The translations under genes were made by a program, and so were the position numbers. From a virus, in the IMG/VR virus record IMGVR_UViG_3300005309_000026, positions 1 through 6,512 of that record: a stretch of 6,512 bases of DNA; one strand, 5' to 3'. Positions 2,913 to 6,512 of this stretch are shown here, piece after piece (position 1 is the first letter of the stretch; every line of letters begins with the position of its first letter). The notes below the pieces were generated by a model. That model did no database searches. It saw only the letters and a program-made list of their open reading frames with translations, and was not told the origin of the DNA.

Positions 2913-2953
2913 CAGTGTTAACACTGTCATAAGTTTTTTAACAAAAAAAACTT
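2911..2953 (+). terminator. Hairpins immediately after the pI stop (probable rho-independent terminator)
   Basis: GACAGTG-TTAA-CACTGTC (2911-2928) overlaps the TGA stop and is followed by a T6 run (2934-2939). A second AT hairpin AAGTTTTTT/AAAAAACTT lies at 2931-2953. Confidence 0.5.
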
Positions 2954-2990
2954 ATCGTTAAGCTATCGCAATGAAGAACTCTAATAACAA

Positions 2991-3139
2991 CGTCATGTCT
3001 ATGACGCTTAGATTCGTGCCTACGAATCGACACAATCACAATAGAATATTTCCCCCTCTGATTACAAAAAAAATAATGTAAACTTTGAGCCAAATTTACA
3101 GAAGCGTCGGAGTATTACGACGCTGAACAGAGGGAATAT
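2991..3139 (+). other. Cluster of ssDNA hairpins in the large intergenic region; candidate packaging signal and/or minus-strand origin
   Basis: CGTCAT-gtct-ATGACG at 2991-3006. GATTCGT-gcct-ACGAATC at 3011-3028. A long-range stem ATATT(cc)CCCTCTG 3046-3060 pairs with CAGAGGGAATAT 3128-3139. That stem encloses TGTAAAcTTT-gagcc-AAATTTACA (3077-3100) and AGCGTCG-gagtatta-CGACGCT (3103-3124). The position between the assembly gene and rep equals the Ff intergenic region. Confidence 0.5.
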
Positions 3140-3377
3140 GAAACATATCGCACATAAAGTTTTTTTCTTTAGTAATGATAAAATTATTGTTTTATATAAA
3201 GTTTATTTTTTTAAAACCTATTTTTGTATTTATGAAAATTTTTTAGATTTTGATCGTGACTTTAAATCGGATGCATCTAGATATGTTGATTTTACATATT
3301 TATCAGATCAGCAAACGCAAGATTTTTTCTCTACTCTAGATATGTCTAATTTTAAAGATAAACCACATTTTCAATGA
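3138..3377 (+). CDS. Hypothetical 79-aa protein (Phe/Asp/Tyr/Lys-rich); coding status uncertain
   Basis: An 80-codon open frame in the most AT-rich part of the genome, where stop codons should be frequent. Codons mostly end in T, as in the other genes. GAGGG lies 3-4 nt before the ATG, but it is also part of the 3128-3139 stem. No recognisable motif. Confidence 0.35.
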   Translation: MKHIAHKVFFFSNDKIIVLYKVYFFKTYFCIYENFLDFDRDFKSDASRYVDFTYLSDQQTQDFFSTLDMSNFKDKPHFQ

Positions 3378-3435
3378 TGTAATATTATTGTTGTTGTTAA
3401 ACTTATGTGTTATTGCTGGTGAAATATTTTTAAAA

Positions 3436-3466
3436 TATTGATAACATGACAACATCTTTTTAAAAG
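3436..3466 (+). promoter_or_regulatory. Candidate rep promoter/operator (or origin core): TTGATA -35-like hexamer plus two 8-bp iterons
   Basis: TATTGATAACATGACAACAT (3436-3455) is 19/20 identical to 5065-5084. TTGATA lies at 3438-3443 and TAAAAG at 3461-3466, with a 17-bp spacing. The iterons are GATAACAT 3440-3447 and GACAACAT 3448-3455. AT-only palindromes flank the block at 3423-3439 and 3456-3466. Confidence 0.5.
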
Positions 3467-3468
3467 AC

Positions 3469-3501
3469 AAAAAAAAACCCATCTTGGCGGGCGGGTTTTT
3501 T
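3469..3501. other. Symmetric A-tract / GC / T-tract hairpin between the candidate promoter and the rep start
   Basis: AAAAAACCC (3472-3480) pairs with GGGTTTTTT (3493-3501) around a 12-nt loop. It looks the same on both strands. Confidence 0.4.
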
Positions 3502-3538
3502 CGGGTCTGTGTACTGCTAACACATAGGTTTATTATAA

Positions 3539-4108
3539 ATGAATATTGATTTAAGTCAAAAAAAATTGGCTCTTGGTATACTTACGAAATCTCACTCCAC
3601 AATAGATTCACAAAGGATTAGTGATTATTTACTGCAAGATCAGGCTTCTAAACTTCTTAAACATAAATTTCGTGTAAAGTATTGTTTAAAAAGAAAAATT
3701 AAAAGAACTGAAAATGTAAATGTGTGTTGGAATGAATCTACAAAAAAAGCACATTATGCAAATGTTATTAGATGTGGTTCAGTTTGGGTTTGTCCTGTTT
3801 GTGCAAAAAAAATTACTGAAAAAAGAAGAAATGAATTAGCTTTGATCAATAAAAAGTGGAAAGAAGGTATTACTTTATTTTCTCCAGTTGAACAATCTAA
3901 AAAAATTGTTGGTCCTCCTCGTTATTTAGAAGAGTTCGTTCATGGTTATACTTATCTTTTAACTCTTACTAATCCTCATTATGTTAATGATCGTTTAACG
4001 GATCTTCGAGAAAAACAAAAAAAAGCTATGAAATCATTTTTTTCAGACCGTAAGGGACAATATATTTTTAATCAGTTACTTGGTAAACGCTTTCATATCA
4101 CAAACTAA
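3539..4108 (+). CDS. Rolling-circle replication initiator (HUH superfamily, pC194/Rep_1-like; Ff gene II analogue), N-terminal fragment, 189 aa, ending at an in-frame TAA
   Basis: Cys cluster CGSVWVCPVCAKK, typical of pC194-type Rep N-terminal regions. Rep motif 1 YLLTLTNPH (LLTLT 3956-3970). Same reading frame as 4154-4825. Confidence 0.85.
   Translation: MNIDLSQKKLALGILTKSHSTIDSQRISDYLLQDQASKLLKHKFRVKYCLKRKIKRTENVNVCWNESTKKAHYANVIRCGSVWVCPVCAKKITEKRRNELALINKKWKEGITLFSPVEQSKKIVGPPRYLEEFVHGYTYLLTLTNPHYVNDRLTDLREKQKKAMKSFFSDRKGQYIFNQLLGKRFHITN
4106..4108 (+). other. Single in-frame TAA interrupting the rep reading frame
   Basis: 3539 and 4154 are in the same frame. The only stop between them is TAA 4106-4108 (context ACA AAC TAA GAA ATA). 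Confidence 0.95.
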
Positions 4109-4825
4109 GAAATAACTTACGGGCAAAATGGTTGGCATCCACATCATCATATTTTGATTTTTTCAGATAAATATTTATCAATTCGGGATTTTGATTCTAT
4201 TCATGAATTATTAGCTGATCATTGGAGTGATTCACTGCATAAAGCGGGTATTCGTAAAATTAAATCTAATGAAAAATTTATTGCTTGTGATCTTCAGGAC
4301 GGAACTTTTGCAGATCAGTATATTGGTAAATGGGGTATAGAGCATGAAATGACAAAAGGTCATGTCAAAAAAGGACGTGATACATATACTCCTTTTGATT
4401 TGCTTAGGCTATCTGATAAAGATGATTTAATTTTTGAGAAGAAGCCTTCTAAATTGTTTCAAGAATTCGCAATTGCCTTTAAAGGTGCTAGACAATTAGT
4501 TTTTAGTCGTGGTCTTAAATATGCTTTTGCTGTTCAGGAAAAAACAGATGATGAAATTATGGATGAAACACTTGAAGAATCTGTTTTATTGACAACAATC
4601 GAAGATATGGTGTTTAGACTTTTATGTAAATATAAAAAACGTGCTGAATACTTAGATTGTATAACTCAAGATAAATTGAACGGTGTTGTTGGTAGTGGAT
4701 CTGCCGAATTACTTGTTAGTAACTTGGCAGAAAATGAAATATTAATTTTAGAAGAAATGAATTCTCAAACTTTCTCTATTGTTGAATTACCTTTTGATGT
4801 TCCTAGAGTTTTACCTATTCAATAA
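4109..4825 (+). CDS. Rolling-circle replication initiator, C-terminal portion (238 codons). It carries the HUH and catalytic Tyr motifs. The first possible start is TTG 4154, downstream of the HUH motif
   Basis: 4109-4153 reads EITYGQNGWHPHHHI with no ATG/GTG/TTG. The HUH motif HPHHHIL lies at 4136-4156. The Tyr motif QYIGKWG (Y at 4319-4321) fits the Y-x-x-K motif 3 of superfamily I Reps. The stop is TAA 4823-4825. Confidence 0.8.
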   Translation, partial: EITYGQNGWHPHHHILIFSDKYLSIRDFDSIHELLADHWSDSLHKAGIRKIKSNEKFIACDLQDGTFADQYIGKWGIEHEMTKGHVKKGRDTYTPFDLLRLSDKDDLIFEKKPSKLFQEFAIAFKGARQLVFSRGLKYAFAVQEKTDDEIMDETLEESVLLTTIEDMVFRLLCKYKKRAEYLDCITQDKLNGVVGSGSAELLVSNLAENEILILEEMNSQTFSIVELPFDVPRVLPIQ

Positions 4826-5003
4826 TAATATTCCCGTCTTTTGCAATTGCTTTTTTGAATGCTTCATTTATTAGTAAATGAAGTATTTCACTTTCTTTAA
4901 GCACTGGCATATTCCTTTCCAATCTTTGCATATTAACTTCTTTTGATATTTTCATTAATGAAATTTCTTCATTTTTTTTAATCCTTAAATATGCTGAAAT
5001 CAT
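4815..5003 (-). CDS. Small antisense protein, 62 aa; candidate ribbon-helix-helix (Arc/Mnt/CopG-like) transcriptional regulator
   Basis: It is the only plausible minus-strand gene and is divergent from the 5134 operon across the iteron region. The N-terminal ISAYLRIKK is strand-like. The C-terminal KESEILHLLINEAFKKAIAK resembles helix B of P22 Arc (NSEIYQRVMESFKKEG, from memory). The SD (AGG) is 11 nt from the ATG, which is long. The 3' end overlaps the rep 3' end by 11 bp. Confidence 0.5.
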   Translation of the reverse strand: MISAYLRIKKNEEISLMKISKEVNMQRLERNMPVLKESEILHLLINEAFKKAIAKDGNIIIE

Positions 5004-5066
5004 TGATAAATAAACCTTTCTTTGTTTAACGATTTTTAGATTCTATCAACAAGTTTATTTGATGTA

Positions 5067-5110
5067 TTGACAACATGACAACATGACAACATACTATTTG
5101 TACAAATAAT
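5067..5110 (+). promoter_or_regulatory. Promoter/operator of the structural-gene operon: perfect -35, three tandem 8-bp iterons and a 14-bp palindrome
   Basis: TTGACA at 5067-5072. GACAACAT x3 exactly tandem at 5069-5092. Candidate -10 boxes are TACTAT 5092-5097 and AATAAT 5105-5110. The palindrome TATTTGTACAAATA lies at 5095-5108. The whole block sits 24-67 nt upstream of ATG 5134. Confidence 0.55.
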
Positions 5111-5133: not shown

Positions 5134-5373
5134 ATGGCTATGAAAACACTTATAGAACAAGCTCAAATTATGAAAGGCATGAAAAAGGATGGTGTAACTC
5201 CTTATTTTTATGTCGAAGTTTTAGAAAAAGTACGTAAATACATTAATCCTGATAAACCGCAAGATTCTGCAACTCTTCTTGCATTAGCTGATTCTGCTCA
5301 AGTTGTTCCAGAACTTGTTTTACATCAAAGAAGTAATCAACTTGTTTTTTCTTCTTTAGATTTAGAGAATTAG
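5134..5373 (+). CDS. Hypothetical 79-aa protein. Its position, first gene before the coat genes, is where inoviruses usually encode the ssDNA-binding protein (gene V analogue)
   Basis: AGGA at 5123-5126 lies 7 nt before the ATG. The frame is clean to TAG 5371-5373. I recognise no sequence motif, so the function is positional inference only. Confidence 0.6.
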   Translation: MAMKTLIEQAQIMKGMKKDGVTPYFYVEVLEKVRKYINPDKPQDSATLLALADSAQVVPELVLHQRSNQLVFSSLDLEN

Positions 5374-5563: not shown

Positions 5564-5860
5564 ATGAACTTAAAAAATGTAGAGTTAATGGAAAATTCAA
5601 TGAATTCTCCAGTTGCTTATGTTTCTGATGAACAACATCAAAACAATGTTTCAACTTTTAATCAATCTTTAAAACTTGGTGTTGCTTTAGCTATCGCTAC
5701 TTTAGCAGTTAATGCCAATGCCGCTATGCCTGATATTGATGTTGCTGATATTTTGACTTATATCGGTTTACTTGTTGCTGCTGTTGCAACTGTAGCTAGT
5801 GCATCTTTGATGATCTGGTTAGCTGCTAAAGGTATCAAAGCAATTCGTGCTGCCTTCTAA
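5564..5860 (+). CDS. Major coat protein (pVIII-type) precursor, 98 aa; predicted mature protein 45 aa
   Basis: The SD GGGGG (5554-5558) lies 5 nt before the ATG. The leader ends LKLGVALAIATLAVNANA/A, an A-x-A site after codon 53 (5720-5722). The mature protein AMPDIDVADILTYIGLLVAAVATVASASLMIWLAAKGIKAIRAAF has the canonical layout: acidic N-terminus, hydrophobic core, basic C-terminus. Confidence 0.85.
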   Translation: MNLKNVELMENSMNSPVAYVSDEQHQNNVSTFNQSLKLGVALAIATLAVNANAAMPDIDVADILTYIGLLVAAVATVASASLMIWLAAKGIKAIRAAF

Positions 5861-5883: not shown

Positions 5884-5935
5884 CGCTTTCGAGCGGAAAA
5901 AAATGCATCGAGGGCGCGCAGATGCATTTTTTTTT
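5884..5935 (+). terminator. Rho-independent terminator after the major coat gene (symmetric, potentially bidirectional)
   Basis: The stem AAAAAAATGCATC (5897-5909) pairs with GATGCATTTTTTT (5921-5933) around an 11-nt GC-rich loop. The T run is 9 long (5927-5935). A small CGCT-TTCG-AGCG hairpin precedes it at 5884-5895. Ff phages also terminate strongly after gene VIII. Confidence 0.75.
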
Positions 5936-6028: not shown

Positions 6029-6512
6029 ATGAAAAAAATATTTATTACGTTTCTAACTTTCGTTCTTTATTTTAATTCTTTTACGTCTGCACATGCTCAA
6101 ACTGTGGGCGGTTGGTCTGTCGGTGGTGGCATTGCGCAAGGTGCTTCAACTGTATACAACGGAACAAGAAAAATTTTAATCGGCGGTAAAGAATTTATAC
6201 AAAAAGGTTCTGCAAAAATTACACCAAACGCATCTCAAGTTGCAAAAGTACTCGGACGAGGGGTTGCAGGTTATGCGCTATCTGTTGCTGTTCAAGAAAT
6301 GCTTGGAGCCGTTGATTGGGTTCTTGACCCAGCAAACAATCGAATTAAATATTTTGACCCTACCTCTTGTACTTCAAATGGTTCAGCTTGTCCTCATGCT
6401 CAAAAATACTATCAATGTTATTCGAGGGGCATGGCTACGTGTGCAAATTACTTTGATAATCCGCAATCTGCTTGTAATGATGTTTTAACAAAAAATTCTG
6501 TAGGTGCTGTTT
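6029..6512 (+). CDS. pIII-like minor coat / adsorption protein, 5' part (runs off the window end; continues at 1-1118 on the circle)
   Basis: ATG 6029 opens MKKIFITFLTFVLYFNSFTSAHA/QTVGGWSVGGG..., a typical signal peptide with an AHA-Q cleavage site. The frame stays open to the window end. After subtracting 6200 it is in phase with the 99-1118 ORF (6203 = position 3). Confidence 0.8.
   Translation, partial: MKKIFITFLTFVLYFNSFTSAHAQTVGGWSVGGGIAQGASTVYNGTRKILIGGKEFIQKGSAKITPNASQVAKVLGRGVAGYALSVAVQEMLGAVDWVLDPANNRIKYFDPTSCTSNGSACPHAQKYYQCYSRGMATCANYFDNPQSACNDVLTKNSVGAV
6201..6512. repeat. Terminal direct repeat copy 2, identical to 1-312
   Basis: Same comparison as copy 1. The reading frame opened at 6029 continues seamlessly into it. 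Confidence 0.95.

Follow-up and report, generated by a model that had tools for sequence, protein, structure and literature searches.

Tandem 8-bp repeats as putative operators of a small regulator in a filamentous phage genome

Two arrays of the 8-bp unit GACAACAT were found on promoter regions of the filamentous phage genome analysed here, and we consider it probable (about 0.7) that they are operators of the phage's own 62-aa protein, through which the rightward operon, the gene of the protein itself and rep would be controlled. Site 1 (5069-5092, plus strand) is a putative operator array made of three exact tandem GACAACAT units, recognised in the sequence, by Tandem Repeats Finder and in the relatives, and site 2 (3440-3455, plus strand) is a putative array that reads GATAACAT GACAACAT, recognised in the sequence and in the relatives. 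These arrays are a real and very probably functional feature of the genome. A first-pass annotation of this DNA had proposed that the 62-aa ORF on the minus strand binds the repeats and serves both regions. This ORF remains the best candidate, since the unit adjoins a homologue of the regulator even where the Rep belongs to a different family, and the comparative evidence makes it probable that one regulator acts on both rep and the operon downstream of 5134.

The genome and its repeat arrays

The window, that is, the whole stretch of 6,512 nt that was analysed, represents a circular genome of about 6200 nt because its positions 1-312 are repeated at 6201-6512. By its gene content, it is a filamentous phage (inovirus): it carries genes for a Zot/pI-like protein (1398-2912, Pfam Zot), a DUF2523 minor coat protein (1114-1395), a major coat protein (5564-5860, Phage_Coat_B) and a pIII-like protein, the gene for the latter spanning the junction (6029 to 1118). 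The rightward gene order is ORF79 (5134-5373, plus strand; phrog_21135, a family of unknown function), ORF57 and the major coat gene. A search of the phage collection with the nucleotide sequence of the window gave 0 matches, and a scan of viral contigs with ORF79 found nothing. Related contigs are present in Acinetobacter baumannii assemblies; the first description of filamentous phages of Acinetobacter and related bacteria is only recent (PMC11209303).

Three other stretches of the genome deserve mention. The region 2913-3128, after the Zot-like gene, is an intergenic stretch with many hairpins in or near it (a terminator-like one at 2910-2929, then CGTCAT..ATGACG, GATTCGT..ACGAATC and GCGTCG..CGACGC), and gave no alignment even to relatives that are 82% identical; it may be an exchangeable module with a packaging signal or a minus-strand origin. 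An ORF of 79 aa at 3138-3377 has no family match and has a counterpart of 81 aa in the closest relatives (L029-L032), which suggests that it is probably a real gene, in the slot where other relatives carry a ribbon-helix-helix (RHH) gene. Directly 3' of the major coat gene, at 5895-5935, there is a strong hairpin resembling an intrinsic terminator (ATGCATC…GATGCAT plus T9) that the automatic scan missed, and Ff phages likewise have a terminator right after the major coat gene.

The segment 5065-5092 reads TATTGACAACATGACAACATGACAACAT and the segment 3436-3455 reads TATTGATAACATGACAACAT, with 19 of 20 positions identical between both sites. This identity, the three exact tandem units at 5069-5092 and the two at 3440-3455 were already described in the first-pass annotation and could all be read in the sequence, and so could the overlap of the first units with -35 hexamers (TTGACA at 5067-5072 and TTGATA at 3438-3443). 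One of the two 8-bp units of site 2 (3440-3455) carries a C to T change. Tandem Repeats Finder reported a period of 8 with 3.1 copies and 100% matches at 5068-5092, and in a repeat search the similarity between both sites stretched to 34 nt at 79% (3422-3455 versus 5051-5084). The exact unit occurs four times in the genome, always within sites 1 and 2, and across 12 genomes exact units were almost confined to the two sites. When the 6200-nt genome was shuffled 1000 times with its dinucleotide composition preserved, at least three exact tandem 8-mers never appeared, and a dispersed pair of 20-mers with at most one mismatch appeared in 15 of the shuffles. Single units with at most one mismatch (14 found versus 7.95 expected) were not significant alone, and it is the clustering and tandem arrangement of the units that constitutes the non-random signal. 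The unit itself is asymmetric, with CATG present at each junction between units. The exact repeat string was not found in the literature searched. In an informal comparison with the boxes of host factors (Fur, Zur, IHF and DnaA), none matched the geometry of 8-bp direct repeats, and these factors were therefore rejected.

Conservation in related phages, named in the first-pass annotation as a check on its proposal, was investigated in more than 20 related loci gathered by means of the 62-aa protein, with regulator identities from 97% down to 44%; the P0080 locus (L033) was left out, its upstream sequence being too short. The closest genomes have only about 82% DNA identity to the window. In every one of these loci, the intergenic region from the regulator gene to the homologue of ORF79, which is always 3' of site 1, contains GACAACAT-type units. 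The only long invariant block among nine aligned intergenic regions was TGACAA(C/T)ATGACAACATGACAACAT, and the site 1 array is kept even where the regulator is down to 44-58% identity and the flanking sequence has diverged. Site 1 comprises three direct units in most relatives, and four in L020. The orientation is -> <- -> inside the same 24 bp in L017 and L023 and <- -> <- in L008, with the 24-bp length kept; L016 carries one additional inverted unit, and in L013, L022 and L024 the units are dispersed or of the GACAAnnn type. These results do not sustain two more specific statements made earlier. The repeats need not be exactly tandem and direct, as relatives have units in mixed orientation or dispersed, and the proposed rule of two versus three units does not extend to the relatives, which have three or four at site 1 and two or three degenerate ones at site 2. 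The general pattern across relatives is that the units are perfect at site 1 and degenerate at site 2. Judged from these alignments, keeping the unit while its orientation and number change is the behaviour of an independently recognised protein-binding subsite. The invariance of the arrays and the conserved promoter geometry in diverged relatives thus support the view that the repeats function as arrays bound by a protein at promoter regions.

Predicted promoters and hairpins at the two sites

At site 1, the array and the predicted promoter of the ORF79/coat operon coincide. This promoter, P(+), is of the sigma-70 type (5067-5095, plus strand) and consists of TTGACA (5067-5072), a spacer of 17 nt and CATACT (5090-5095); with 10 of 12 matches, it was the second-best promoter-like site in the window, and transcription from it would begin near 5102. 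It is composed wholly of the array: TT before unit 1 plus GACA make the -35 hexamer, the three 8-bp units yield the exact 17-nt spacer, and the CAT of unit 3 opens the -10 hexamer. The same arrangement (TTGACA-17-CATACT, CATAAT or CATTAT) ranked first among the promoter-like sites of nearly all relatives, whether or not their units are flipped, so that the predicted promoter has the -35 and -10 hexamers, the spacing (17±1 nt) and the conservation of a sigma-70 promoter. Since P(+) is formed by the units, a protein bound to them would cover the whole core promoter and exclude RNA polymerase.

The regulator gene diverges from this promoter, and a predicted extended -10 element of its own promoter (TGATAGAAT; 5040-5048, minus strand) could be read from the sequence. 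The leftward site, AATACA-17-TAGAAT, TAAAAT or TAAACT, recurs in relatives, each time preceded by TGn, as TGnTA(A/G)A(A/C)T. The regulator mRNA would start near 5033. The array would then lie at about -36 to -59 of the predicted promoter, and autoregulation of the 62-aa gene through site 1, whether positive or negative, is therefore likely. In most relatives, a (C/T)TTG(A/C)TGTATT motif adjoins the first site 1 unit (5051-5066 in the window), and CAACTTGAT, presumably identical to the origin core of phiX174, lies close to site 1 in L001. The motif beside site 1 may be a coincidence or a Rep nick region.

Site 2 precedes rep (3539-4825, plus strand; phrog_11698), which encodes a pC194-type, Rep_1-like HUH protein. 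The Reps of the relatives match Pfam Rep_1 (pC194 family), one copy reaching 25.6 bits, below the cut-off of 33.2, and the motifs TYLLTLTN and HPHHHIL resemble what we take to be motifs 1 and 2 of pC194-type proteins. Immediately 5' of the HUH motif, the window copy is interrupted by an in-frame TAA (4106-4108; …FHITN, stop, EITYGQNGWHPHHHIL). The codon at this position is TAT (Tyr) in the closest relatives L029, L030 and L002, and the rep of the window therefore contains either a nonsense mutation or a sequencing error. All relatives with Rep_1-type proteins carry two or three phased, degenerate units upstream of rep (for example GACAACAA GACAAAAA GACAACAT, or GATAACAT GATTACAT GACAACAA), at 15-35 nt from a GC hairpin that is followed by rep. 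A putative weak rep promoter (3438-3466, plus strand) was read from the sequence as TTGATA (3438-3443), 17 nt and TAAAAG (3461-3466); the -10 hexamer is poor and the site was not listed by the promoter scan. The -35 hexamer falls within the first site 2 unit in relatives too, and in L001 and L018 the site reads TTGACA-17-TACAAT. As there is no space for a promoter between the hairpin and the ATG of rep, site 2 appears to be a weak rep promoter with a start near 3473, although, given the poor -10 of the window, it might not be a promoter at all.

The GC hairpin (3472-3501) is flanked by an A-run and a T-run and resembles a terminator above all on the minus strand, where it is always followed by 5-9 T; the T-run of the plus strand is broken in some relatives. 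Its stems vary among relatives yet still pair. The loop (ATCTTGGCGGGC at 3478-3489 of the window) keeps the core TTGGCG over differing stems in the window, L008, L014 and L022, with TTGCAG or TTGCCG in other relatives. Such constancy of the loop over changing stems is uncommon among simple terminators and could point to an RNA kissing loop or a Rep nick site. A smaller conserved hairpin, GTGT-ACTGCTA-ACAC, was found at 3508-3524, in the rep leader and the predicted antisense RNA, and shows one compensatory change (UA to AU) in L022. Over the rep start codon, on the minus strand (3532-3559), the promoter scan detected an antisense site, TTGACT-16-TATAAT, which with 11 of 12 matches is the best promoter-like site in the window and is kept in L001, L002, L003 and L008. 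As this promoter points through both hairpins to the T-run, the prediction is a countertranscript of about 55-60 nt, from about 3525 to 3466, complementary to the leader of rep, which in turn supports an mRNA start for rep at site 2. RNAalifold folded the region into two hairpins and a U-run, with 7 of 17 predicted pairs surviving changes on both sides. In Rfam, the only match was a sub-threshold one to Trp_leader at 3411-3504 (26.7 bits versus a gathering score of 41), which we read as a generic resemblance to terminators and attenuators. The first-pass annotation was incomplete for this region: it lacked the hairpin and the antisense promoter between site 2 and rep, the in-frame stop in rep and the RHH gene that relatives carry here.

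The 62-aa protein and its association with the units

The candidate regulator gene (4815-5003, minus strand, stop codon included) encodes 62 aa and belongs to the phrog_5642 family (PHROG match, E 7e-17). It converges with rep and diverges from the rightward operon, of which ORF79 (5134) is the first gene. At their 3' ends, rep and the regulator gene share 11 nt (4815-4825) in the window and 8 nt in L010. There is no terminator 3' of the regulator gene in the window, and its transcript may therefore run antisense across rep to the hairpin at 3472-3501. We collected 66 homologues; the members of the clade with GACAACAT arrays all share MISAYLRI and KESEILH. With 23 representatives at 50% identity among 1.8 billion proteins, this family is small, and it occurs solely on contigs of inovirus size; a scan of genome contigs with the regulator alignment found nothing. 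In all loci examined, the regulator gene lies beside the arrays.

The assignment of this protein to the RHH class, made in the first-pass annotation, could not be upheld. None of 31 members matched an RHH family in Pfam at E<=10, Pfam gave no helix-turn-helix (HTH) match either, NCBIfam gave no RHH or HTH match for the 62-aa protein, and PHROGs placed it in a function-unknown family only. An hhalign comparison with Arc gave the expected register but an E of 0.27 and a probability of 0.2%, and one with the true RHH_9 proteins encoded nearby gave an E of 0.61. A PDB profile search returned nothing relevant, and Foldseek searches of PDB and BFVD with the model yielded no RHH structure. In the AlphaFold2 monomer (pLDDT 94), residues 2-6 form a short helix, 10-29 and 37-51 two further helices and 52-61 a C-terminal beta-hairpin; the model is not an HTH and shows no N-terminal strand, an intermolecular ribbon not being visible in a monomer. 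By eye only, the RHH pattern fits the invariant, beta-prone N-terminus MISAYLRI, the two helices and the start of helix 2 at KESEILH. The operators are of the kind typical of RHH proteins, that is, short reiterated subsites: phased 8-bp units, two to four in each array, in either orientation. By analogy, the 62-aa protein may work like omega or MetJ, and we do not file it as RHH. That it binds DNA at all is deduced from its context only.

Relatives with other replication proteins were informative in this respect. In L025, a regulator homologue of 35% identity (N-terminus MAKKDMYLRIK) is divergent from a Rep of the Phage_CRI/G2P type (Pfam E 1e-39), a family unrelated to Rep_1. The 127-nt intergenic region between them contains the 7-mer GACAACA in one inverted and three direct copies, two of the latter being full CATGACAACATG units and the third ending in ...ACAG; as the contig is of 1.4 kb, another shared protein could sit on its unseen part. 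L026 and L027, whose regulators start with ..TTALRLTK and whose Rep is also Phage_CRI, carry five GTTAAC repeats at spacings of 16, 18, 16 and 22 nt. In L006 (inovirus D_HF3_19; regulator MKSLRIK, Rep_trans), ATGCAAAT-type units occur in both orientations with an 8-nt period. These comparisons are good, if indirect, evidence that the units travel with the small protein and not with Rep across three Rep families. The repeat specificity also seems to follow the amino acid that precedes the invariant L-R (Tyr with GACAAC), a co-change of N-terminus and repeat seen in three or four lineages. Phage blackswan219-6, which has a Rep of 34% identity and no regulator, was considered as a case in which Rep occurs alone; being GC-rich and too distant, and lacking iterons in front of rep, it proved uninformative.

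The same comparisons bear on the possibility that Rep binds the units as iterons of a rolling-circle origin, site 2 and the hairpin being the double-strand origin and site 1 a second Rep site. Origins of pMV158 and of geminiviruses and circoviruses combine a bind locus with a nick hairpin, and this possibility would account for the constant position of site 2 at 15-35 nt from a hairpin with a variable stem and a recurrent loop, as well as for the CTTG(A/C)TG motif that adjoins site 1 in several relatives and resembles CTTGATA, which we take to be the nick sequence of pC194 and phiX174. Nevertheless, we regard it as quite improbable. The repeat does not change with Rep, the unit being common to the Rep_1-like clade and to the regulator homologue's locus in L025 with its Phage_CRI Rep; site 1 has an exact promoter geometry; and the hairpin is better read as the terminator of an antisense RNA, since the longer T-run is always that of the minus strand and relatives retain the antisense promoter. 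To our knowledge, pC194-type Rep_1 origins also use no iterons. The conserved hairpin adjoins site 2, with no such hairpin at site 1, and its recurrent loop over differing stems leaves a small probability of an additional origin role for it at site 2.

A different phage protein might bind the units, either ORF79 (5134-5373), which is always found 3' of site 1, or the canonical RHH protein of the relatives (PIRVDxELK...TASQELRKYM; Pfam RHH_9 25.2 bits, cut-off 23.4). The gene for the latter lies just upstream of site 2 and rep in L002 (2058-2216), L010 (3480-3677), L003, L004 and L014, ending at or inside site 2, and in L003, L004 and L010 the site 2 units are part of its 3' coding sequence (…MTTRQKDN). 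This seems unlikely to us, because both arrays are kept in the window and in L008, from which the RHH gene is absent, and because the short L025 contig carries units and no ORF79 homologue was seen on it. We also think it rather implausible that no dedicated regulator is involved and that reiterated -35-like hexamers (TTGACA/ATGACA), or the site of a host factor, are kept for a strong or adjustable promoter. It is true that each unit contains a near -35 hexamer (TGACAA, or TTGTCA on the other strand) and that the scan returned overlapping promoter-like sites on both strands. However, units are dispersed outside promoter geometry in L022, L025 and L013, the flips of orientation keep the unit and not the hexamer, site 2 retains its units despite a weak promoter, and the repeats differ between regulator lineages. 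Control by the 62-aa protein thus remains the reading that we prefer.

A possible mechanism and its relation to known systems

If the 62-aa protein is the regulator, it would be made from its own leftward promoter and would fill the three perfect units of site 1 first, and occupancy of site 1 would switch off the operon of ORF79, ORF57, coat and assembly genes. At a higher level of regulator, the two weaker units of site 2 would be filled and rep damped, with the predicted antisense RNA further limiting Rep. Probably one dimer would bind to each unit, with independent reading of the units and cooperativity between neighbours; independent reading of each unit would explain why either orientation is tolerated in relatives. 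The outcome would be a carrier state of low output, with immunity-like behaviour.

Several known systems resemble parts of this arrangement. The omega (ParB-pSM) repressor of pSM19035 reads 7-bp heptads, in the native arrangement ->-><-->-><-<-, and binds three or more repeats over 50-fold better than one (PMC9499535). As in that system, the phage units are short, non-palindromic and contiguous, direct or inverted, and are found at several promoters of one replicon (PMC9499535). The phage arrays share the freedom of orientation of the omega sites (-> -> ->, -> <- -> and <- -> <-), but the units have 8 bp instead of 7, the 62-aa protein has no detectable RHH signature, there is no apparent role in partition, and binding in the phage is a prediction. 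MetJ binds 8-bp metboxes, palindromic AGACGTCT sequences present as 2-5 tandem units that overlap promoters, and needs a co-repressor. The 8-bp period and the tandem units over promoters are alike in both cases, whereas the phage GACAACAT is asymmetric and the 62-aa protein has no match to MetJ in sequence or fold.

Among filamentous phages, RstR, acting at PrstA of CTXphi, and Pf4r are small HTH repressors, and in CTXphi the replication module is the one controlled. At all loci examined here, there is likewise a small phage regulator divergent from the promoter that it would control, with the operators in between, and in relatives of the L025 and L006 types the controlled module would be replication, as in CTXphi. 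In contrast, the 62-aa protein has no HTH match, and in the clade of the window the divergent promoter drives the ORF79/coat operon, with rep on a separate and weaker site. In the copG-repB system of pMV158, control is exerted by the RHH protein CopG and the antisense RNAII. Its likeness to the phages lies in the small RHH gene of relatives directly upstream of an HUH rep and in the antisense promoter and terminator opposite the rep leader in all of them. This likeness concerns the surroundings of site 2 and not GACAACAT; besides, the phage Rep is Rep_1-like and not Rep_2, the window has no RHH gene and the RNA is only predicted.

A divergent control region with reiterated subsites for a small repressor is, then, a familiar system, here with an uncharacterised protein family. 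As the principle is well known, it would bring little surprise to a specialist. More tentatively, phrog_5642 might represent an as yet unrecognised class of small regulators that bind DNA without a detectable RHH or HTH relationship; they would read 8-bp units either way, and one or two N-terminal residues (Tyr5 for GACAAC) would determine their specificity. Such a class would form a portable cassette of regulator plus operator among inoviruses with three unrelated initiators, placed beside an antisense-RNA control of rep in the clade of the window. For the phage itself, the analysis points to a candidate switch in which the 62-aa protein would act on a 24-bp operator doubling as the promoter and on another, weaker site at rep. 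If true, this switch would explain the restraint of virion production and replication and probably superinfection exclusion, and it would provide a function for an orphan PHROG family and a compact repressible promoter module.
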